From a virus (lineage: Duplodnaviria > Caudoviricetes), in IMG/VR virus record IMGVR_UViG_3300049988_000245, positions 96,001-160,000 of that record: 64,000 nucleotides of DNA; one strand, 5' to 3'. Position numbers and translations under genes: made by a program. This document shows, one piece after another, positions 11,135 to 62,294 of this stretch (its first letter is position 1; every line of letters starts with the position of its first letter). Under the pieces are notes generated by a model. It had not been told where the DNA came from, searched no databases, and worked only from the letters and a program-made list of their open reading frames with translations.

Positions 11135-12271
11135 TCAGAGCTTGAAATCCGAGAAAGTACCTGAATCCACGTCCTGCTTGGTCTGACCGATCGTGTATTG
11201 CGTGATCTCGGTCTCCTGCGGTGCCACCTGCACCTCAGCACCGGAAATCCACTTGGCCGTCCACGGGAGAGGATTAGCCTTCTGCGGGTAGATCGGCGAC
11301 AGGCCGACCGCGACCAGACGCTTGTTGGCGATCCATTCGACATAGTCGGACAGGAGCGCATAGTTGAGGCCGATCATGCTCCCGTCCTTGAACAGGTACT
11401 CGGCCCACTCCTTCTCCTGGGTGACCGCGTCGGAGAACAGCTTGGTGCATTCCTCCTTGGTCTCCTCGGCGATCTTGGCGAAGTCCGGATCGTCCTGTGG
11501 TAGAATCTTGATCAGCGTCTGGGTGGCGGCGAGGTGAAGATTCTCGTCGCGGCAGATCAGCTTGATGATCTTCGCGTTGCCTTCCATCCGCTTAACCTCG
11601 GCATACGCCCAGGAGCAGGCAAAGCTCACGTAGAACCGAACACCCTCAAGGATGTTCACGCTCATGATGGCCATCCACAGAGCCTTCTTAAGCTCGTATA
11701 GGTCCACCTTGACGGATTCGCCGTTGATCGTGTGCGTACCCTCGCCGAAGAGGTTGTACAGCCCCTCCAGGCGAATCAGGTTGTCATAGTGCTCGGAGAT
11801 GTCCTTGGCGCAATCGACGATCTCGCCGATGTCCATCATCTCATCGAACACCTGGGATGGATTCGGGTAGACGTTCCTGATGATGTGGGTGTACGACCGG
11901 CTGTGAATCGTCTCCGAGAACGCCCACGTGGTGATGAACGCCTCTAGCTCGGGGAGCGAGACGATCGGCAGGAACGCGATGTTGGGGGACCGACCCTGAA
12001 CGGAGTCCAGTAGAATCTGACGCTTCAGATTCGACGTGAAGATGTGCCGTTCGTGATCAGTGAGTTCCTTGAAGTCTTTTGCGTCCTTCATCACGTCAAC
12101 CTCCTGAGGTTGCCAGAAGAACGATAGTTGCTTCTCGGTTAGTTTGTCGAACTGACGATACTTCATCGTATCGAATCGCTGAACGGAGACGCCTCCATTG
12201 GGGTCCAAGAACGCAAGCGCCTGAGTATGGTCTTTACGAGAATTTGCATCAAATACGGACATAAGTAACAC
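11135..12271 (-). CDS. nrdB: ribonucleotide reductase class Ia beta subunit
   Basis: FFWQPQEVD, DSVQGR, ETIHSRSY, DENLH, PQETE motifs. Confidence 0.97.
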   Translation of the reverse strand: MLLMSVFDANSRKDHTQALAFLDPNGGVSVQRFDTMKYRQFDKLTEKQLSFFWQPQEVDVMKDAKDFKELTDHERHIFTSNLKRQILLDSVQGRSPNIAFLPIVSLPELEAFITTWAFSETIHSRSYTHIIRNVYPNPSQVFDEMMDIGEIVDCAKDISEHYDNLIRLEGLYNLFGEGTHTINGESVKVDLYELKKALWMAIMSVNILEGVRFYVSFACSWAYAEVKRMEGNAKIIKLICRDENLHLAATQTLIKILPQDDPDFAKIAEETKEECTKLFSDAVTQEKEWAEYLFKDGSMIGLNYALLSDYVEWIANKRLVAVGLSPIYPQKANPLPWTAKWISGAEVQVAPQETEITQYTIGQTKQDVDSGTFSDFKL

Positions 12272-12851
12272 TCCAATCTTTGCAGTTGCCGCGTTTGGCG
12301 GGATAATCTTGTTTCTTCGTCAAGCGATCTCGAAAGGCTTGATAAACTTTCGGCCACGCTACCTTAAATCTATGCTCGTTTTCTTGGCACCAAGATTTTA
12401 GGCAGTCGGACGCGAAAATCTCGCCCTCCGGTGACCGAATTTCAGAAGCTTTGCTGTTTGGATTGCTGCTTCCAGTCCGAGACACCCCATACATGCCATT
12501 GGCCTCGCCGTAGTGAGGACGGTGATTGGGATGAGTCTTCCCGTACATGCCATTCCGACACCCTGACACATCCCGTCCGTTGTTCCCTCCATATGCGCTG
12601 GGGCTTATGTTGTAGAAATCCGGACTTTTGGCTGCATCATAGGAATCAAGGTAGTGCTGCTCGCGCTCCTGAATTCGAGAATCATCAACGTATTCAAGAA
12701 TGATTCGTTCAAATGAATCTCTACCATATTTTATGTAGGCTCGGCGGAAGTGCTTACCTGATCCGACGTACGAGCTAGAATCTAAGCCAGAATGTCGGCC
12801 AATATACTTCTTACCGTCAAGCTTATTAGTCCAAAGATATATGAATCCCAT
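12249..12851 (-). CDS. GIY-YIG homing endonuclease with NUMOD3-like repeats
   Basis: GFIYLWTNKLDGKKYIGRH; NGMYGK/NGMYG repeats; AT-rich; overlaps nrdB 5' end. Confidence 0.9.
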   Translation of the reverse strand: MGFIYLWTNKLDGKKYIGRHSGLDSSSYVGSGKHFRRAYIKYGRDSFERIILEYVDDSRIQEREQHYLDSYDAAKSPDFYNISPSAYGGNNGRDVSGCRNGMYGKTHPNHRPHYGEANGMYGVSRTGSSNPNSKASEIRSPEGEIFASDCLKSWCQENEHRFKVAWPKVYQAFRDRLTKKQDYPAKRGNCKDWSVTYVRI

Positions 12852-12904
12852 GAACGGATGATACCAAAGGGTATCACCCGTTCTCAACTTCGAAATGTCG
12901 AGAC

Positions 12905-13129
12905 TTAGAGGGTCTCGAACTCGAAGCGATTCTTGATCGACTCGTTGAGGAACTTGGTCTTGCTGTCCGCCGACTCGAAGTTGCTTGCCGTCGAAGCATC
13001 GACGTTGTTGTACCGGTAGGTCTTGCCGCCGATGAAGGCGACTTCGAGCGTCTGCGCGGACGAATCGTAGGCGATGCGGTCGATGTTACCGCTGTTGAAA
13101 TCCGTGCCATTGGTCTTGGTGAAGGACAT
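12905..13129 (-). CDS. KTSC domain protein
   Basis: SGNIDRIAYD..TLEVAF..G..YRY.NV..F..ADSK..F.N..IK.RF. Confidence 0.9.
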   Translation of the reverse strand: MSFTKTNGTDFNSGNIDRIAYDSSAQTLEVAFIGGKTYRYNNVDASTASNFESADSKTKFLNESIKNRFEFETL

Positions 13130-13244
13130 CTGAATCTCTCTCGTATAAGGATTCGACGAACAAATTTGGTTCGACGAAAATACCAATTGCATGGTTAACG
13201 GGTGTTTGGCAAGGTGGACGTACGAAAATCAGAAAGGTTCTAAT

Positions 13245-14096
13245 ATGCCGTTTAACCGTCGCGGGATTCTCGCTGGCCTCCTGGGAACGCCCCTGGGGAT
13301 CACCGCACTGAAGGCGATGCCGCTTCCGGCAGAGACCCAGAAGGCCATCGCGTTCACCCCCGAGGTGCAGAAGGCGGTCGAGAACATTCCCCCGCTCCCG
13401 ACCCCGAAACGCAATCTGCATCCGTTATTCGGATTCCAGACGATCGATGCCGAGCTTGGGTTCGCCTATACCCTGCGCAGCCGATACTCAGATGCGGTGA
13501 CCCTTGCGAATCCTGAGCCGCGCATCTCGATCCAGATTAACAAGGTGGTTGCTGGGGGTACATATTACCCGACGATGGACGCGGCCGAGGACGCGATCTT
13601 CAGTAAGTTCGCCATCACCCATCGCGAGGTGAGAAGCCCAGACAACCCCGAGCATACCAAGTTTCACCTCGTGCGGGCGGCGAACCGGATCGCCCAGACG
13701 ACCCGGCGCGGCATGGGTAACGTCATTCTCGTCCATCGGGATGACCTGCATCTACTCGATACCCCGTGGGTGGCCAACGTGATCCCCGAGCGAATCGGGC
13801 GGTGGTCGAACGTCGGGTTCACCCACAACCGAGTCTCCCAGGTCTGGGTCACCGACCGCCGTGTTCCTGCGATCCCGCACGGGAACGCGCTTGTGGGTTA
13901 TCGCGGATCGGAGTTAGACGCCCCTGCCGTTCTCACGTATCATCCGGGCTTTGGATACAGCTACGCGATGAACGAGAAGCCGGAAACCTACATGCACGTA
14001 GTCGGACTGACTGTGAAAGCCCGAGCGCCCCATACGGACGAGGCTATATGGGCGGAAGAGAAGCGGGGTGCCGTACGCCCCGTTCGCGCCGCATGA
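13245..14096 (+). CDS. Tat-leader protein made of T4-type major capsid protein segments
   Basis: N-terminal NRRGILAGLLG; GFQ...LG..YTLRSRY, RISIQINK, RAANRIAQTTRRGMGN, LVGYRGSELDA match gp23-family motifs. Confidence 0.75.
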   Translation: MPFNRRGILAGLLGTPLGITALKAMPLPAETQKAIAFTPEVQKAVENIPPLPTPKRNLHPLFGFQTIDAELGFAYTLRSRYSDAVTLANPEPRISIQINKVVAGGTYYPTMDAAEDAIFSKFAITHREVRSPDNPEHTKFHLVRAANRIAQTTRRGMGNVILVHRDDLHLLDTPWVANVIPERIGRWSNVGFTHNRVSQVWVTDRRVPAIPHGNALVGYRGSELDAPAVLTYHPGFGYSYAMNEKPETYMHVVGLTVKARAPHTDEAIWAEEKRGAVRPVRAA

Positions 14097-14287
14097 AGCG
14101 GCCTTCCTTAGAGAAGATCGCCCAGGCCCTTCCTCGCTCGCGTATCATGGCAGGCGAGTACACCTACCCGTACGCCGAGGGTGGGCCTCAGCGGCGGGTC
14201 TTCTACGCAGATGTGGGCACGCTTCCCCCGGAGGCGGCCAACCGATTCATCAAATCGCTCATGGAGAAGTACGATGGAACGTCGTAG
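14093..14287 (+). CDS. 64-aa portal (gp20) fragment-like protein
   Basis: GPQRRVFYADVGTLPPEAANRFIKSLMEKY resembles gp20 APERRIFYIDVGNLP..KA..Y...VM..Y; ATGA coupling to upstream gene. Confidence 0.65.
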   Translation: MKRPSLEKIAQALPRSRIMAGEYTYPYAEGGPQRRVFYADVGTLPPEAANRFIKSLMEKYDGTS

Positions 14288-14810
14288 CCTTCTCGCGGCC
14301 GGTGCTGCCGCGATCACCGGTCTGTTCGGCGCCAAGTCGGCTCAGGCGGCGCCCTCGGGCGCTCTCACTCTGGACGAAGCCACGCGGATCGTCGTCGGCA
14401 ACGTTCGTAATCCGCCTGCCCCGGAGGAGATTCAGCGTCTCATCGCGGGGATCAATATGCAGGTAATGAACCGGCTTACCCAAGCTGGCATCGTTGACCC
14501 GCAATACGTAATGACGAGCGCCGTGGTTCGCTTCCGGGGGCAGGTGGTCGAGGCCAAGACACGTAGGCTCTCTTCGCGTTACACGTTCGGAGAGAATGTC
14601 CCGCCGATCGTGCAGGCCGAGGTCGAAGCCACGTTGGTCGAGAGCATCGTGCAGGAGATCACCGCAGAGTTGGTCCGGCCCGAGAACAAGGGTATCCAGT
14701 ATTGTCCATACGAGTTGGTCACCAGTTCCGGGGTCATCCTCGATCCGGAAACGCTCAACCCCACGATATTCTTTCTGACCCGTTTTGGGACCTTCGTGAA
14801 AGCCGCATAG
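14274..14810 (+). CDS. Tat-leader protein made of major capsid protein segments
   Basis: MERRSLLAAG..AQA leader; VEAKTRRLSSRYTF, QEITAE, YCPY..SSGVILDPETLNP..F.TRFG. Confidence 0.78.
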   Translation: MERRSLLAAGAAAITGLFGAKSAQAAPSGALTLDEATRIVVGNVRNPPAPEEIQRLIAGINMQVMNRLTQAGIVDPQYVMTSAVVRFRGQVVEAKTRRLSSRYTFGENVPPIVQAEVEATLVESIVQEITAELVRPENKGIQYCPYELVTSSGVILDPETLNPTIFFLTRFGTFVKAA

Positions 14811-15250
14811 AGTCCTGGCATCCGACCACACATGAGGAAGCGTTGGGCGTTCTCTTGAAGAATGCCCAACGCGACAAGCCGCGTTCGCGCATCGAACAGG
14901 TCGTTGAATGTATCAACCGGCGTGTTTTCGAAAATGTTCGGGAGATCATCAACCCACGTCTGGTCATGGTCGAGCGCGTCATGATGCTCGATTGGGCCGT
15001 CGAGGCTCGGACTCGGAATCTTCGGACACACATGGACTGCGCCGATTTTCGCCAGAGCGGCTACGTCCCCGAGATGATCGAGGCGGCCATTGACGGTATC
15101 ACGGGTGAAATTCTGGAGATGCAGGCCGGGACGAGTTTATCGTACTGTCCCTACGCGCTGGTGACCGGGCACGAGCAAATTGTCGATCCGACCACCTCTG
15201 GTGAATACGTCTATTTCCGTACCTGTTACGGATTGTACGAGCTACCTTAG
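14807..15250 (+). CDS. third major capsid protein fragment paralog (start uncertain)
   Basis: VEARTRNL, ITGEI, YCPY..DPTT..YFRTCYG; start could be ATA at 14807 or TTG at 14843. Confidence 0.65.
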   Translation: MESWHPTTHEEALGVLLKNAQRDKPRSRIEQVVECINRRVFENVREIINPRLVMVERVMMLDWAVEARTRNLRTHMDCADFRQSGYVPEMIEAAIDGITGEILEMQAGTSLSYCPYALVTGHEQIVDPTTSGEYVYFRTCYGLYELP

Positions 15251-15510: not shown

Positions 15511-15960
15511 TCAGCCCTCGATCTCGCCAACCTCGTAGTGATTCCCCACCTTACCACCATATTTGATTCGGAAGTGAAATGCATCGTTCGGATTCCCGAA
15601 AAAGAACACGTTGGTTAACGGGAGAACCTTGCCGTACTCGATTGGCATCTGGGATCGGAACAGGCTCACCCGCATGTGCCAGAGCGAAGATACGTTCTCG
15701 ATGATCCACTCGTGCATCTCGCGATCGTACGGATGCGCGTACAGCGTCACCATATGGGGGAACGTTTCTTCCACCCAGGCCCAATACTGCTTGTTATTGG
15801 ACGTGTTGAGTTCGTCCTTGGCGTGAACCCGTTTTGTTTCCGGGTCCATCACCGCCAGCGGATGGATATGGCCCTGGATGATGTAGAGACGGCGCAATAA
15901 CTTACGTCGTAAAATTCTTGTTATTCGAAATAATCTTGCTAGTAGCACGTTTACCCCCAT
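15511..15960 (-). CDS. FKMRW-family protein (extended)
   Basis: FPH..EWIIENV..FFFGNPNDAFHFRIKYG. Confidence 0.65.
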   Translation of the reverse strand: MGVNVLLARLFRITRILRRKLLRRLYIIQGHIHPLAVMDPETKRVHAKDELNTSNNKQYWAWVEETFPHMVTLYAHPYDREMHEWIIENVSSLWHMRVSLFRSQMPIEYGKVLPLTNVFFFGNPNDAFHFRIKYGGKVGNHYEVGEIEG

Positions 15961-16160
15961 GACATTTTGAATTCCAGGGCTGTCGTATCGTTTTTGATCA
16001 AGACATTTCCACAAAGTGTAAGTTCCCAATCAAGAAATTCTATTCCTACGTGCTCTTTCAACCACGAGCGAATATTATATCGATCAATCTCAGATTCTGA
16101 AGTGAACATGTGTGGTAAGTCAACGTTGTGATTTGCAATTTTGTGATATCGAAACCTCAT
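15951..16160 (-). CDS. FKMRW-family small protein
   Basis: MRFRYH..WLKEHVG..IKNDTTALEFKMSWG; ATGA overlap. Confidence 0.75.
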   Translation of the reverse strand: MRFRYHKIANHNVDLPHMFTSESEIDRYNIRSWLKEHVGIEFLDWELTLCGNVLIKNDTTALEFKMSWG

Positions 16161-16414
16161 CCCCACCTCACGCGAAACGCCGTGGCATCGACATCTGTCG
16201 AGATGTCGATGGTCGTCATGTCGGCGCGCCAGCGGGGTACGACCGGCTTCACCCCGTAGGCGTAGTCGGGCGGGCCGAACTGCTCGCGGCACCAATGGAT
16301 CGCCTCGATCATGTTGGCGTTCGTGGTGAAATAGGTTGGGGAAACAATCATCTCGAAACCGAACGGGTATTTGGTTCCCTTCAGCCGATAAAGCGGTTTG
16401 AACTTGATCTCCAT
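16157..16414 (-). CDS. FKMRW-family small protein
   Basis: YPFGF..WCREQFG..DVDATAFRVRWG. Confidence 0.8.
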   Translation of the reverse strand: MEIKFKPLYRLKGTKYPFGFEMIVSPTYFTTNANMIEAIHWCREQFGPPDYAYGVKPVVPRWRADMTTIDISTDVDATAFRVRWG

Positions 16415-16662
16415 CAGCACCACCGCATTTTGAAGGCGAGCGCATCGGGCTCATTTTGGAATACAATATGGAATCCGTTGCACCGGAACGCTTCGCTTTG
16501 GTATCCGATTTGATCCATGCACCAGCGTAAGGCGAGGTCGCGCGTCTCGTAGTAGCTATCTCCGTCGAAGACATGCTGTTTTAGAGAGAACTGATACGGG
16601 TAGGTTAGTTTCCGCCCTTTCCGGTCCTCGAATACAGTCGGCTCTTGAAACCAGTCCACCAT
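16414..16662 (-). CDS. FKMRW-family small protein
   Basis: YPYQF..WCMDQIG..FQNEPDALAFKMRWC. Confidence 0.8.
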   Translation of the reverse strand: MVDWFQEPTVFEDRKGRKLTYPYQFSLKQHVFDGDSYYETRDLALRWCMDQIGYQSEAFRCNGFHIVFQNEPDALAFKMRWC

Positions 16663-16928
16663 CAGCAGTACCTCAACTTGAATTCGAGCGCCTGTGGGAG
16701 GTCTCGCATATAAATGGTTCCACGGTGTCCGACGCGCCAATCCTTTCCGTGCGGGCCGACGTTCTCGACCAGCCATTCGGCGATGAAATCGGGTGTGTAA
16801 TCGGCACCGGCCCCAATATCAGGATTGGTGGTTTCAACGCAGCCCGTTCCGAACACCAGCCGATGATGGCGTGGTTGGAACATGTGCTCGTTCGCGTTCA
16901 CCACGTGATGGTATGAGATTCTGGTCAT
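16662..16928 (-). CDS. FKMRW-family small protein
   Basis: WLVENVG..RDLPQALEFKLRYC. Confidence 0.75.
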   Translation of the reverse strand: MTRISYHHVVNANEHMFQPRHHRLVFGTGCVETTNPDIGAGADYTPDFIAEWLVENVGPHGKDWRVGHRGTIYMRDLPQALEFKLRYC

Positions 16929-17453: not shown

Positions 17454-19934
17454 TCAAATCCGGCAGGCGTCGCACTCTTCTTCGTCTGCGGAGATATTTT
17501 CGTCTTCGGCGACAGCTTCCTTCGCGTGAACGTCGATCTCACCGGCGGAATCATTGGTGTTGTTGTAGTAGAGTGTCTTACCGCCCCACTTGTAGTGCAG
17601 CATGATGTGCTTTAGCAGTTCTGACATCGGCACGCGATCGTCTTCGTAGAACTTCGGGTTATACGAGGTGTTAACCGAAATGGCCTGATCGATGTACTTC
17701 TGAAGAATCGCGCAAAGCTGAAGGTAGCCGAGCGGGCTCTTCTGGTCCCAGAGGAGTTCGTAGTTCTTCTTGAGCTTGCGAATCTCAGGAACGACCTGCT
17801 TGAGCACGCCGTGCTTGGACTGCTTCACCGAGACGTACGAGCGCGGCGCTTCGATTCCGTTGGTCGCGTTGGCGATCTGGGCGGAGGTCTCGGCGGGCAT
17901 CAGCGCCATCAGCGTGGCATTGCGGATTCCATACTTCTTCAGGTCGGCGCGGAGAGAATCCCAATCCAGGCGCTCTTCGTGGGCGATCAATTCGTCCACT
18001 TCGGCCTTGCGGGTGTCGATCGGGACGATGCCTCGATGATATTTTGTATTTTTGGAGAGTAGGCAAGCGCCCTTCTCCTTGGCAAGCTCCACCGACGCCT
18101 TAATCAAATAGTACGACCATGCCTCGGCGTACTGATCGACCAGGGCGATACCCGAGCCATCCGTGTACTTGACGCCGTTCTTCGCGAGGAAATACGCGAA
18201 GTTGATGATGCCGATACCGAGCGGACGGTACTCCTGGGTGTGCTTCTGAGCGGCCAGAACAGGGTATTCCTGATGGTCGAGCAGGTTGTCGAGGGCGCGG
18301 ACCGCAAGGCGGCAGATGCGCTCGAAATCGTGCGGCGACTTGATCACGCCCCAATTGATCGCGGAGAGCGTGCACAGGGCGATGCGGGACATGTCGTCCT
18401 CGCGCTCAACCTCGACCATGTTGGTCTTCGAGTACCAGGGCGTACCGGCCTCATCCAAACCGGATTCGGTTTTCACGGAGGAGCCGACCACATTGACGAT
18501 CGCGTTGTTCGCGCGAGCCGCTTCCATGAAGGTCACGAGTTCGGCCACCGGGATCGAGAGGCGCTGCGTCTGCACGGTACCCATCGGGGTCGTGGTGAGG
18601 GTAATCTCGCAGCAGAGGTTCGACATATGGACGGGCGCCACCTTCTCGTCGAACGACGAATGGGTGTTGGCGTTGTCCACGTTCATCAGGTAGATTCGGC
18701 CAGTGTCCTTGCGCTCGTTCACGAACGTGGTGAACAGTTCGAGGGCCTTGACCTTCTTCTTGCGCAGGCGGGTGTTGCGCTCGGCGGTCTCGTAAAGCTG
18801 CTTGAACTTGTCCTGATCGGCGAAGAACGCCTCGTACAGCCCAGGGACATCCGAAGGAGAGAACAGGGTGATCTCACCGCCAGTGATCAGTCGCTCATAG
18901 AAGAGCTTCGAGAACTGAACGCCGTAGTCCATGTGACGGACGCGGTTCTCTTCGACGCCCTTGTTGTTCTTCAGAACGAGGAGGCTTTCCACCTCAAGGT
19001 GCCAGATCGGGTAGTAGAGAGTCGCCGAGCCCTTGCGGACGCCGCCCTGGTTGCAGGAATTCACAGCCGACTGGAAATGCTTGAAGAACGGCGTCAGACC
19101 GGTGTGAGAGGCGTCACCGTTCCGGATGGGCGAGCCGAGCGCGCGGATCGAGCCCGCGCCGATGCCGATACCGGCACGCTGAGATACGTAGTCGATGACG
19201 GCGGCCGAGGTCGCGTTGATCGACTTCAGGGAGTCGCCGCACTCAATCAGGGTGCACGAGGAGTACTGACGCACAGCCGTACGCACGCCCGACATAATCG
19301 GCGTGGGGAGGGAGATTTCGTGCTTCGAGATGGACTCGTAGTAGTCCCGCACCCACTGGAGGCGGGTTTCCTTGGGGTATCGGGCGAACAGCACCGCCGC
19401 GACGAGGATGTAGAGAATCTGTGGGGTCTCAAGAATCTCGCCTGTGACGCGATTCTGGACTAGATACTTGCCGCGCATCTGCTCCATGGCGACGTAGGTC
19501 AGCGCCATGTCTCGCTCATGATTGACGAATCCGCCGATCTCGTCCCACTCGGACTCGGTGTAGTCGGTGAGCAGCGCGGGGTCGTAAAAACCCTTCTCGA
19601 CGTTCGTCTTGATCACGTCGAACAGGCGAAGCGCCTGAAAGCGGCCATGGACCTGCTTGCGCAGATGATAGTTGACCAGACGACCAGCAACGTACTGGTA
19701 GTTGGGGTGATCTTCGGAGATCAGGTCGGCCGCAGCCTTGATCAGAGTCTCTTGAATATCAGAGGTCTTCATACCATCGAAGAACTGAATCTGCGAACGC
19801 AGTTCGACTTCGGATGCGCTGACGCCGGACAAGCCCTCGGTCGCCCAGAAGACGACCTTGTGCAGCTTTTCCAGATTCAGGGGTTCTTTAGTGCCATCAC
19901 GCTTCGTGACGTTGATCTTCATACCAATATCCAT
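17454..19934 (-). CDS. nrdA: ribonucleotide reductase class Ia alpha subunit with ATP cone
   Basis: VTKRDG ATP cone, PTPIM, SSC, NLCCEI finger loop, PAETSAQ, C-terminal CDAC. Confidence 0.97.
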   Translation of the reverse strand: MDIGMKINVTKRDGTKEPLNLEKLHKVVFWATEGLSGVSASEVELRSQIQFFDGMKTSDIQETLIKAAADLISEDHPNYQYVAGRLVNYHLRKQVHGRFQALRLFDVIKTNVEKGFYDPALLTDYTESEWDEIGGFVNHERDMALTYVAMEQMRGKYLVQNRVTGEILETPQILYILVAAVLFARYPKETRLQWVRDYYESISKHEISLPTPIMSGVRTAVRQYSSCTLIECGDSLKSINATSAAVIDYVSQRAGIGIGAGSIRALGSPIRNGDASHTGLTPFFKHFQSAVNSCNQGGVRKGSATLYYPIWHLEVESLLVLKNNKGVEENRVRHMDYGVQFSKLFYERLITGGEITLFSPSDVPGLYEAFFADQDKFKQLYETAERNTRLRKKKVKALELFTTFVNERKDTGRIYLMNVDNANTHSSFDEKVAPVHMSNLCCEITLTTTPMGTVQTQRLSIPVAELVTFMEAARANNAIVNVVGSSVKTESGLDEAGTPWYSKTNMVEVEREDDMSRIALCTLSAINWGVIKSPHDFERICRLAVRALDNLLDHQEYPVLAAQKHTQEYRPLGIGIINFAYFLAKNGVKYTDGSGIALVDQYAEAWSYYLIKASVELAKEKGACLLSKNTKYHRGIVPIDTRKAEVDELIAHEERLDWDSLRADLKKYGIRNATLMALMPAETSAQIANATNGIEAPRSYVSVKQSKHGVLKQVVPEIRKLKKNYELLWDQKSPLGYLQLCAILQKYIDQAISVNTSYNPKFYEDDRVPMSELLKHIMLHYKWGGKTLYYNNTNDSAGEIDVHAKEAVAEDENISADEEECDACRI

Positions 19935-20046: not shown

Positions 20047-20514
20047 CTAAGGCTTCAGTGGTTCTGCAATTTCTTTGTCGATGATGATGGGGAATTCTGG
20101 TACGGGCAGAGATTCCACATCGAATCCTTCACCCGCGTCGTACGAGAACGAGATATGCGGGTTGTATTCTGGAAAGTCGTACGAGGCGCCACGGCTCATC
20201 GCGAGGTCGAATCGCGTCCGCAGGTACGAGGATTCCAGATGGAGCACCAGAACGGGCTTCTTCGTGTTGTGGTCTTCCCAGACCTCCCAACCGGTTGCTT
20301 TGGCTTCATGACCGATGTCGTGCTCGGCTCGCCAGAAGAGCGGCTTCTTGCTGTACACGATGGTGGTGTGATAGCGAGATGGGACGATTGGATTTTTGAT
20401 CTTGAAGTCATCGACAAACTTTGAGAGGTCTTTGACCGTCTGTTTGTCAAACTTCACGCATACGTACAGGCCGTTTTTCGGCTCTGAGTCTTCCATAATT
20501 TCAGCAAAACGCAT
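20047..20514 (-). CDS. acb1: anti-CBASS 2H phosphodiesterase Acb1 / T4 57B-like
   Basis: GLYV..KF, NP.VP, HTTIVYS, LVLHLESSYL, GASYDF..YNPHISFSY, EPLK align with recalled T4 57B sequence. Confidence 0.85.
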   Translation of the reverse strand: MRFAEIMEDSEPKNGLYVCVKFDKQTVKDLSKFVDDFKIKNPIVPSRYHTTIVYSKKPLFWRAEHDIGHEAKATGWEVWEDHNTKKPVLVLHLESSYLRTRFDLAMSRGASYDFPEYNPHISFSYDAGEGFDVESLPVPEFPIIIDKEIAEPLKP

Positions 20515-60986: not shown

Positions 60987-62294
60987 GTGTCTGAACTCGA
61001 TTCAAACCTGTTTTGCTCATTCTGCACTAAGCCATCCACCGAGGTGAAGAAGCTTATCGCTGGTGATGCCGTCTATATTTGCGACGAATGCATTGATCTT
61101 TGCCACGGAATTCTTCATGAGGCTCCGGTGGAGAAGCGTGAATCTGGGTCCAAGTCGGTTGGATCATCCAAAAAGGTCGAGGAGGAAGAGGAAGAGGAAG
61201 TTCCGACGCCGCGTTCGATCAAGGCTCATCTGGATCAGTACATCATCGGTCAGGACGTGGCAAAGACCGCCGTCGCCGTCGCGGTGTACAACCACTATAA
61301 GCGGCTGGCCAACCCGATCGTCGATGAGGTGGAGTTGGAGAAGTCCAACATCCTACTCCTCGGACCGACCGGCTGCGGTAAGACGCTGATTGCGCAGTCC
61401 ATCGCCCGCCTGCTCGACGTGCCGTTCGCGATTGCCGACTGCACCGCACTGACCGAAGCCGGATACGTCGGCGACGACGTGGAATCGGTCATCACCAAGC
61501 TGCTCCAGAACGCCGATTACGACGTGGAGAAGGCTCAGCGGGGCATCGTCTATTTGGACGAGATCGACAAGAAGGCCCGCCGGGGCGAGACCGCATCGGG
61601 ATCGCGCGACGTGTCCGGTGAGGGCGTGCAGCAATCCTTGCTGAAGCTCCTCGAAGGTTCCGACATCATGGTGCCTGCGGCGGGTGGGCGGAAGTCCGCC
61701 ACCGGAGAGATGTACAAGGTCAACACCAAGAACATCCTCTTCATCTGCGGCGGCGCATTCGTGGGGATCGACAAGATCATCGAACAGGAACTCAACAAGG
61801 GTTCGGGTCAAATTGGATTCGGTGCCAAGTCGGTTGGCAAGAGCAAGATCGAGGTTTCCGCGCTGTTCAAGATGGTTGAGCCTGAGCATGTGGCCAAGTA
61901 TGGACTCATCCCTGAGCTTGTTGGGCGTCTACCGATTCTCGCGCCTCTCCATGAACTCACCGAGGATCAGCTTGTTCACGTGCTGACCGAGCCCCGCAAC
62001 GCGGTGACGAAGCAGTTCGAGAAGCTGTTCAAGCTCGACGGGGTCGAACTCACCTTCACCACGGACGCACTCCAGGCGGTGGCGAATCTCGCGCGCAAGC
62101 GTAAGACGGGTGCCCGTGGCCTGCGCGGGGTTATCGAACAGTATCTGATCTCGCTCCAATTTGATCTTCCGGACCTTGCCAAGGACGGTGTAACCGGTGT
62201 GATCATCGACGAGAAGGTGATCCGATCTGGCGGCACCCCCGAGTTGATCCGTGCGGTTATCGAGACCCCCGCAACCCCCGCCACAGGAGAGTAA
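60987..62294 (+). CDS. clpX: ATP-dependent Clp protease ATPase subunit ClpX
   Basis: CSFC..CDEC Zn-binding domain, GPTGCGKT, GYVG, LDEIDK, IGF loop, GARGLR. Confidence 0.97.
   Translation: MSELDSNLFCSFCTKPSTEVKKLIAGDAVYICDECIDLCHGILHEAPVEKRESGSKSVGSSKKVEEEEEEEVPTPRSIKAHLDQYIIGQDVAKTAVAVAVYNHYKRLANPIVDEVELEKSNILLLGPTGCGKTLIAQSIARLLDVPFAIADCTALTEAGYVGDDVESVITKLLQNADYDVEKAQRGIVYLDEIDKKARRGETASGSRDVSGEGVQQSLLKLLEGSDIMVPAAGGRKSATGEMYKVNTKNILFICGGAFVGIDKIIEQELNKGSGQIGFGAKSVGKSKIEVSALFKMVEPEHVAKYGLIPELVGRLPILAPLHELTEDQLVHVLTEPRNAVTKQFEKLFKLDGVELTFTTDALQAVANLARKRKTGARGLRGVIEQYLISLQFDLPDLAKDGVTGVIIDEKVIRSGGTPELIRAVIETPATPATGE

Follow-up and report, generated by a model that had tools for sequence, protein, structure and literature searches.

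An accessory operon of an uncultured jumbo phage encodes small capsid- and portal-derived proteins, two of them with twin-arginine-type leaders

Capsid and portal proteins are usually viewed as parts of the virion and, lately, as patterns that are sensed by bacterial immunity. In phage T4 the capsid proteins gp23 and gp24 (Pfam PF07068) have the HK97 fold, which is also found outside the virion, in encapsulins and other exapted HK97 proteins; the encapsulins are whole shell subunits, which assemble in the cytoplasm without an export leader and without fragmentation. Satellites encode accessory proteins that disturb the head assembly of another element, i.e., CpmAB and Ccm of Staphylococcus aureus pathogenicity islands (SaPI), Sid of P4 and TcaP of the phage-inducible chromosomal island-like element (PLE); these act in the cytoplasm on the helper procapsid and have no export leader. 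Other small accessory phage proteins, such as T4 Imm, Sp and RI and T5 Llp, are directed to the envelope by a signal sequence; none of them derives from a head protein, and they are not known as substrates of the twin-arginine translocation (Tat) system. Here, we describe an operon, referred to as the cassette, in a 64,000-nucleotide (nt) stretch of phage DNA (the window, bases 96001-160000 of a 265,895-bp IMG/VR virus record). Four translationally coupled plus-strand open reading frames (ORF1, ORF1b, ORF2 and ORF3), located between nrdB and nrdA, encode pieces of head proteins, and ORF1 and ORF2 begin with Tat-type leaders.

The proteins of the cassette share significant matches, conserved blocks and fold elements with gp23 and gp24, but they are one half to one third as long, the prodomain and N-arm at the N-terminus are swapped for an export leader, the long spine helix and the insertion domain are missing from ORF1 and the A domain from ORF2 and ORF3, and the genes are found in an accessory operon outside the head module. 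Encapsulins are among the structural matches, and Ccm is itself HK97-like (a SaPIbov5 entry was found in the VIA structure search), but the proteins that disturb head assembly are satellite-encoded. With T4 Imm, Sp and RI and T5 Llp the cassette proteins may share, by analogy, the small size, the accessory nature and the route to the envelope, but there is no kinship in sequence or fold. The leaders resemble those of bacterial Tat substrates (RR-x-hydrophobic-hydrophobic, a weakly hydrophobic core or h-region, a basic C-terminal or c-region and an AxA site), and the placing of leader-bearing and leaderless paralogues side by side recalls hitchhiker co-export; unlike bacterial substrates, the passengers are phage-encoded fragments of virus heads without cofactors. 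A 2026 review of the Tat system mentions no phage-encoded substrate, and no description of a gene design in which capsid or portal fragments bear Tat leaders was found in the literature and family libraries. The original prediction, made by a model from the letters of the window, knew of no described system of this kind; that assessment holds for the literature on Tat-exported phage capsid-like proteins or capsid-fragment decoys, which gave nothing relevant.

Judged from its sequence, the cassette is a conserved accessory operon encoding four small proteins built from the phage lineage's own head genes. The reading we prefer, with a probability of roughly 0.35, is that these are Tat-exported mimics of head-protein surfaces, which would be located in the envelope and take part in phage-phage or phage-host conflict. 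The genes and leaders are the following (positions in the window, with the evidence in parentheses).

13245..14096, plus strand: ORF1, 283 amino acids (aa) (Pfam Gp23, AlphaFold (AF2) model, Foldseek, BLASTP, ratio of nonsynonymous to synonymous substitution rates (dN/dS))
13245..13331, plus strand: putative Tat-type signal peptide of ORF1, residues 1 to ~29 (NRRGIL, uncharged h-region, c-region Lys, LPA/E site)
14093..14287, plus strand: ORF1b, portal fragment, 64 aa (Pfam Portal_T4, profile of three copies, dN/dS)
14274..14810, plus strand: ORF2, 178 aa (Pfam Gp23, BLASTP, AF2 model, VIA structure search, dN/dS)
14274..14351, plus strand: putative Tat-type signal peptide of ORF2, residues 1-26 (ERRSLL, Ala/Gly-rich h-region, Lys, AQA/AP site)
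14843..15250, plus strand: ORF3, 135 aa from TTG 14843 (or 182 aa from TTG 14702) (alignments, gene-caller product P0007)

ORF1 is composed of the leader, a Pro-rich linker and a compact HK97-fold domain with a beta hairpin, a short helix, a gp23-type A domain and diverged P strands. It matches Pfam Gp23 (PF07068) with E 7.7e-6 and 26.0 bits (cut-off 24.4), and in BLASTP the capsid protein of Sinorhizobium phage Phosso (408 aa) with E 5e-6, where residues 59-85 correspond to residues 90-116 of the capsid protein and residues 136-228 to 249-346. The AF2 model, obtained with a 62-sequence family alignment, has a predicted local distance difference test (pLDDT) score of 80.6, and its best matches in the PDB are T4 gp23, gp24 and HK97 (Foldseek probability 1.0). 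The Pfam match spans positions 219-263 of the 376 of the Gp23 model, i.e., not those of a complete subunit. Megablast and tblastn searches with ORF1 against cultured phages gave no match.

In ORF2 the leader is followed by two helices, an E-loop hairpin, a 23-residue spine helix and a P-domain hairpin. The match to Pfam Gp23 is stronger than that of ORF1 (E 5.5e-10, 39.6 bits, same cut-off), as is that to the Phosso capsid protein (BLASTP E 2e-11; residues 90-133 correspond to 170-215 and residues 143-172 to 348-377). The AF2 model (pLDDT 77.6) displays the two N-terminal helices, a beta hairpin, the 23-residue helix and a long hairpin. Foldseek found no global PDB match to this model; in the exhaustive VIA structure search nearly all of the top 50 chains were HK97-fold capsid or encapsulin proteins, the best being T4 gp24 (Z 7.8, 124 residues aligned, A domain skipped). 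The sequence matches span Pfam Gp23 positions 113-192 and 316-350 of 376, again less than a complete subunit.

These results bear out two earlier claims, i.e., that the cassette proteins derive from gp23-type HK97-fold capsid proteins (Pfam Gp23, BLASTP to the Phosso capsid protein, Foldseek and the VIA search all agree) and that none of them can be a full capsid subunit, as the models lack either the spine helix or the A domain. The mapping on the Phosso capsid protein indicates that ORF1 and ORF2 keep largely complementary capsid parts. The idea of a split capsid fits this complementarity but holds in part only, because ORF1-type genes also stand alone in other phages. Prediction of an ORF1-ORF2 complex (mature parts, custom alignments) gave a score of 0.22 (mark 0.32), which counts neither for nor against binding.

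ORF3 is a leaderless paralogue of ORF2 (28% identity) that likewise retains E-loop, spine helix and P domain, with a match to Pfam Gp23 that falls below the cut-off of 24.4 (E 0.025, 14.4 bits). The original prediction placed the three capsid-derived ORFs on the plus strand between the minus-strand genes nrdB and nrdA, with which the gene positions agree. Its start of ORF3 at 14807 has to be discarded, because nt 14807-14809 are ATA, which is no start codon; in-frame candidates are TTG 14843 and TTG 14702. The former has GAGGAA 4 nt upstream and is the start of gene-caller product P0007.

The same prediction overlooked the fourth gene, ORF1b, the ATG of which overlaps the TGA of ORF1, while its end overlaps the start of ORF2. 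ORF1b matches Pfam Portal_T4 (PF07230) with E 2.1e-5 and 23.9 bits (cut-off 22.9), and a profile of three portal-fragment copies matches residues 264-307 of the T4 portal protein gp20 with E 3e-7. In terms of gp20, ORF1b covers the end of stem helix alpha5 and the terminase-binding tip of the clip. It holds 30-44 residues of the 433-position portal model, i.e., not the wing, stem, clip and crown of a portal dodecamer. In T4 gp20, residues 255-278 are part of the stem and residues 279-358 form the clip, the tip of which (N291, M292, R295, K296) contacts the terminase gp17; a peptide composed of residues 288-311 binds gp17 and blocks packaging (PMC4493910). ORF1b thus aligns with a segment that includes the gp17-contacting clip tip, but has T, L, E and A in place of the four contact residues. 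The gp20 peptide is synthetic, while ORF1b is a natural, free-standing gene for 64 aa, of which the copy in L012 (one of the related loci listed below) bears a Tat leader. The portal pieces of the window and of L009 (another of these loci) resemble the L012 form minus its hydrophobic core.

The N-terminus of ORF1 begins MPFNRRGILAGLLG and that of ORF2 MERRSLLAAGAAA. Both leaders have RR-x-hydrophobic-hydrophobic, a 16-residue uncharged core of Gly, Ala, Thr and Leu (mean hydropathy ~1.8), a Lys in the c-region and an AxA-type site. The design of the ORF1 leader is identical in L008 and L009, and the ORF2 leader is kept in L007 as QRRNLL...IQA/AP. When every one of the 6,492 start/ORF combinations of 60 aa or more in the 266-kb record was scanned with a rule-based filter, five candidates remained, among which ORF1 and ORF2 are the only long ATG-initiated ORFs. 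In their sequences the two leaders have every hallmark of cleavable twin-arginine signals, so that the claim of such leaders on ORF1 and ORF2 stands, whereas the broader description of the cassette as one of Tat-leader mini-proteins does not extend to ORF3, which has none. The phage record encodes neither TatA nor TatC, from which it follows that the Tat system of the host would serve the leaders.

The cassette adjoins nrdB in four further uncultured loci, with variable gene content.

L007, contig binned into a 'Verrucomicrobiaceae' metagenome-assembled genome: ORF1 and ORF2 only, beside nrdB
L008, second contig of that 'Verrucomicrobiaceae' genome: ORF1, cut at the contig end, beside nrdB
L009, 60.8-kb Logan contig: ORF1, portal piece and ORF3-type gene, beside nrdB
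L012, viral-metagenome contig: six genes, beside nrdB

The genes of L012 are two of ORF1 type, an 82-aa portal piece, one of ORF2 type, a leaderless one of ORF2 type and a third capsid-derived type; five of the six have Tat-type leaders, all different, on four kinds of fragment including the portal piece. In L009, the start and first codons of the ORF3-type gene are a remnant of ORF2, the rest of which is mostly deleted, i.e., a deletion seems to have fused the start of ORF2 to ORF3. In the window, nt 14756-14842 can be read without a stop both as the 3' end of ORF2 and in the frame that leads into ORF3, and this same DNA is homologous to the 5' end of the ORF3-type gene of L009 (L009:10001-10100), where it is read in the ORF3 frame. 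Because L009 reads this upstream DNA in the ORF3 frame, the starts given above for ORF3 in the window are candidate positions only.

The reading frames are intact in all relatives. At dS near 1 (Nei-Gojobori), dN/dS is 0.19-0.23 for ORF1, 0.21 for ORF1b, 0.29 for ORF2 and 0.19 for ORF3 (against L009), as compared to 0.05-0.06 for nrdB and 0.16-0.48 for small neighbouring genes. These values indicate that the cassette genes are under purifying selection and are not pseudogenes. Accordingly, of the outcomes named in advance as refuting the original prediction, two (no gp23 match, and decayed pseudogenes) were not found, given the significant matches and dN/dS of 0.19-0.29.

When 1.8 billion representative proteins were searched with a profile, 69 matched at E <0.001, nearly all of them of 190-330 aa, lengths which imply that the members of this wider family are not full capsid proteins. 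Tat-type leaders were found in 21 of the 62 aligned members, and many others begin directly at a conserved (H/S)P(L/F)F block; on the family tree the leader label is clustered yet needs at least four changes. Other large phage contigs carry members in their accessory regions, either single or in tandem, and in some of these contigs an ORF1-type gene stands alone. One leaderless member comes after a gene for a ClpP-like protease; at L013:733-2027, in another phage contig, a leaderless 222-aa mini-capsid gene is translationally coupled by a 4-nt overlap to such a protease gene, and a T4-type RNA ligase 1 gene follows it. In cultured phages, including Phosso and Atu_ph07, the family queries match only true capsid genes, at one place per genome, and no copy of the cassette was detected. 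Searches of IMG/VR for relatives found none with single proteins and, with the family alignment, nothing but complete capsid genes from ordinary T4-like phages, as TRRGxGN, the pattern that could be used, also occurs in true capsid proteins. Patterns for close relatives found none in JGI metagenome contigs and GTDB genomes, and an ESM Atlas feature search returned low-score matches only.

A capsid piece is also found elsewhere in the same genome, outside the window, in a 153-aa plus-strand gene (L001:1480-1941; genome C1:175996-176457). Over its first 60 residues the product shares 48% identity with the Phosso capsid protein (residues 68-125), a segment which we take to be the equivalent of the Gol region, the most conserved block of gp23; the piece is fused to an unrelated C-terminal domain that ends in ...DAFGFKVRWM, and there is no leader. 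As read from the sequence, this gene shows the genome putting a capsid piece to new use in a second manner.

The genes of the cassette are linked by an ATGA overlap (ORF1/ORF1b) and a 14-nt overlap (ORF1b/ORF2). ORF1 is preceded by AGAAAGG and ORF2, within ORF1b, by GGAG, in each case 7 nt before the ATG. Upstream is the following region.

13130..13244, no strand assigned: divergent intergenic region between the KTSC-domain gene and ORF1, 115 nt (alignment of three phages)

This region is ~90% identical across three phages in which the coding flanks have dS near 1, its 27-nt core occurs once in the window, and it probably carries a phage-specific promoter or operator for the cassette. It also holds a direct or imperfectly palindromic repeat, TTCGACGAAC-N7-GTTCGACGAA; a similar CGAAC(A/G)AATTTGG is found in L012, 15 nt before the first cassette gene. 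The region matches no Rfam family and has no RNA fold better than those of shuffled sequences. Predictions gave no promoter of sigma-70 type upstream of ORF1 and no convincing terminator. At the other end, the stop of ORF3 (TAG 15248-15250) overlaps that of a convergent 86-aa gene (TTA on the plus strand, 15247-15249); L007 and L009 show the same arrangement. With overlapping stops and no terminator between them, transcription from either side must continue into the opposing unit.

The cassette, on the plus strand, is surrounded by minus-strand genes. One flank is made up of nrdB, a homing endonuclease gene and a KTSC-domain gene, the other of a run of small genes followed by nrdA.

11135-12271, minus strand: nrdB
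12249..12887, minus strand: GIY-YIG (Seg-type) free-standing homing endonuclease, adjoining the cassette (Pfam and PHROGs)
12905..13129, minus strand: KTSC-domain gene, divergent neighbour of the cassette (Pfam KTSC E 1.3e-18; position kept in L008 and L009)
17454-19934, minus strand: nrdA

The homing endonuclease gene overlaps the start of nrdB, has a GC content at third codon positions (GC3) of 0.48, as compared to ~0.75 in its neighbours and elsewhere, and is absent from the corresponding site in L008, L009 and L012. The low GC3 and this absence indicate a recent mobile insert and a plastic site. A foreign origin of the cassette itself, suggested by its high GC content, was ruled out, as its GC3 is the same as that of the genome and the excess is found in codon positions 1 and 2; the equal GC3 indicates that the cassette genes are native rather than recent imports.

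The record has a completeness of 57% (CheckV), which implies a genome of ~470 kb. The large subunit of topoisomerase II shares 57% identity with its counterpart in Sinorhizobium phage Phosso (469 kb) and 51% with the one in Agrobacterium phage Atu_ph07 (490 kb), which places the phage in the Phosso/Atu_ph07 clade of T4-superfamily jumbo phages; by this measure these two are the closest cultured relatives of this uncultured jumbo phage. Near-identical DNA is found in leaf and silage metagenomes. Just past nrdA is a 155-aa gene (20047-20514, minus strand); genes in the equivalent position of L007 and L009 match Pfam Acb1, a nuclease directed against the cyclic-oligonucleotide-based antiphage signalling system (CBASS). 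The small genes at 15511-16928 (minus strand), together with L001:1907-2203, belong to a multi-copy family of small proteins with a C-terminal motif of the type (D/N)..(A/E)..FK(M/L/V)R(W/Y), which has no match in Pfam or PHROG; its members in the window are ORFs 15511-16029, 15951-16574, 16157-16423, 16414-16776 and 16662-16928. The phage also encodes ClpX (60987-62294).

The original prediction proposed three roles, as immune decoys, dominant-negative assembly inhibitors or periplasmic effectors, all of which are hypotheses. From the above discussion, the mode of action that we favour may be outlined as follows. The leader-bearing proteins would fold in the cytoplasm, which would explain the use of Tat instead of Sec, as a capsid fold must form there, and the host Tat system would carry them to the inner membrane and periplasm. 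The leaderless partners would travel with them, in the known hitchhiker mode, or remain in the cytoplasm. In the envelope, the fragments would mimic head-protein surfaces, their likeliest role being to keep out superinfecting or competing phages; they might, for instance, trap proteins that are ejected by an incoming phage and that normally bind the head interior or the portal. In lytic phages, accessory proteins with a signal peptide typically serve exclusion or the control of lysis (T4 Imm, Sp and RI). The five different leaders on four kinds of fragment in L012 suggest that export itself is the selected trait of each fragment, and the accessory character of the cassette follows from the variable gene content of close relatives, the lack of a copy in cultured phages and the homing endonuclease next door.

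Several observations weigh against export as the site of function. Curated TAT hidden Markov models (NCBIfam) score ORF1 and ORF2 below their cut-offs, with no match to TIGR01409, although these models are short and insensitive; in the relatives TIGR01409 reaches up to 14.0 bits (cut-off 16.7), in addition to a weak formate_TAT match. ORF1b and ORF3 of the window are leaderless, as is about two thirds of the wider family, which indicates that the domains can also work in the cytoplasm. Among the RNA runs listed, none contains this DNA. We know of no periplasmic target that binds capsid or portal surfaces, and in myoviruses the ejected material mostly moves inside the tail tube. The sole experimentally known activity of an equivalent fragment is cytoplasmic, i.e., the binding of terminase and block of packaging by gp20 288-311 (PMC4493910).

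This last activity, exerted by a 24-aa peptide from the very region to which ORF1b corresponds, is what a dominant-negative weapon acting on the cytoplasmic side would exploit. The fragments would bind the head-assembly partners of a rival phage or satellite, i.e., capsid subunits in the case of ORF1-3 and the large terminase in the case of the portal-clip piece, and the leader would bring the complex to the inner membrane, the start site of T4-type proheads, or into or through the translocon. Proheads of T4 do initiate at the membrane (PMC4493910), ORF1 and ORF2 retain complementary inter-subunit elements, leaderless copies occur, and the fragments are 27-35% identical to the lineage's capsid protein, a divergence that could spare the phage's own assembly. 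Nevertheless, a working Tat leader would clear small folded proteins from the cytoplasm, L012 gives each fragment type a leader of its own, and no sign of a rival phage or satellite is seen, which makes this explanation unlikely.

Just as doubtful is a role as immune decoys, where fragments that show defence-recognised features of capsid and portal would occupy or mislocalise sensors without triggering them (Lit, which involves the gp23 Gol region, CapRel, capsid-sensing TIR systems and Avs-type sensors of portal and terminase). Capsid proteins are documented triggers of defence (PMC3014915; PMC9712102), one operon here holds fragments of two classical triggers, the anti-CBASS gene Acb1 is close by in L007 and L009, and the Gol-equivalent region is fused to an unrelated domain elsewhere in the genome (L001). 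The known sensors of this sort are, however, cytoplasmic, while the leaders point outward; of the Gol-equivalent block ORF1 retains just the latter half, a decoy aimed at sensors of the phage's own capsid would not need to have diverged nearly as far as the fragments have, and no sensor is known in the host of this phage.

A further, improbable scheme couples capture to export. A fragment would bind the cytoplasmic partner of the surface it copies, i.e., a rival phage's capsid subunit or terminase, or a host protein that senses either, and the leader would drag this partner along the hitchhiker route to the translocon, thereby exporting or jamming it. If true, this would be a protein-eviction weapon made from the virus's own structural parts.

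Because T4-type heads begin on the inner membrane with a phage chaperone (PMC4493910), the fragments might also help the phage's own head assembly, as membrane tethers or timers that link prohead initiation, packaging or lysis to the membrane. This is still less probable, as searches detected no copy in either cultured relative, Phosso or Atu_ph07, near relatives differ in gene content, the cassette is found among nucleotide-metabolism genes, away from the head genes, and with a Tat leader the domain would end up on the wrong side of the membrane. That the genes are functionless, decaying remnants of a duplicated head module, with leader-like N-termini by chance, is exceedingly improbable, for although the pieces are fragments, a deletion in L009 took most of ORF2 and the portal piece of the window has lost its hydrophobic core, five or more loci have kept intact frames despite divergence to dS near 1, with dN/dS of 0.19-0.29, the starts are coupled and have Shine-Dalgarno sites, the leaders are conserved and repeated across paralogues, and the family comprises 69 clusters of similar sizes.

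In the cassette, selected miniature copies of capsid and portal proteins bear an export signal otherwise used for folded bacterial enzymes. The gene set is defined and could be tested in the hosts of the cultured relatives, Sinorhizobium and Agrobacterium, and the natural portal-clip miniprotein offers a ready probe for the docking of terminase to the portal. If the proteins are exported, they would make up a new class of envelope effector in phages and, within the reach of our searches, the first family of Tat substrates to be encoded by phages; should they act before export, they would represent a new means of neutralising the assembly machinery of a competitor or a sensor of the host.

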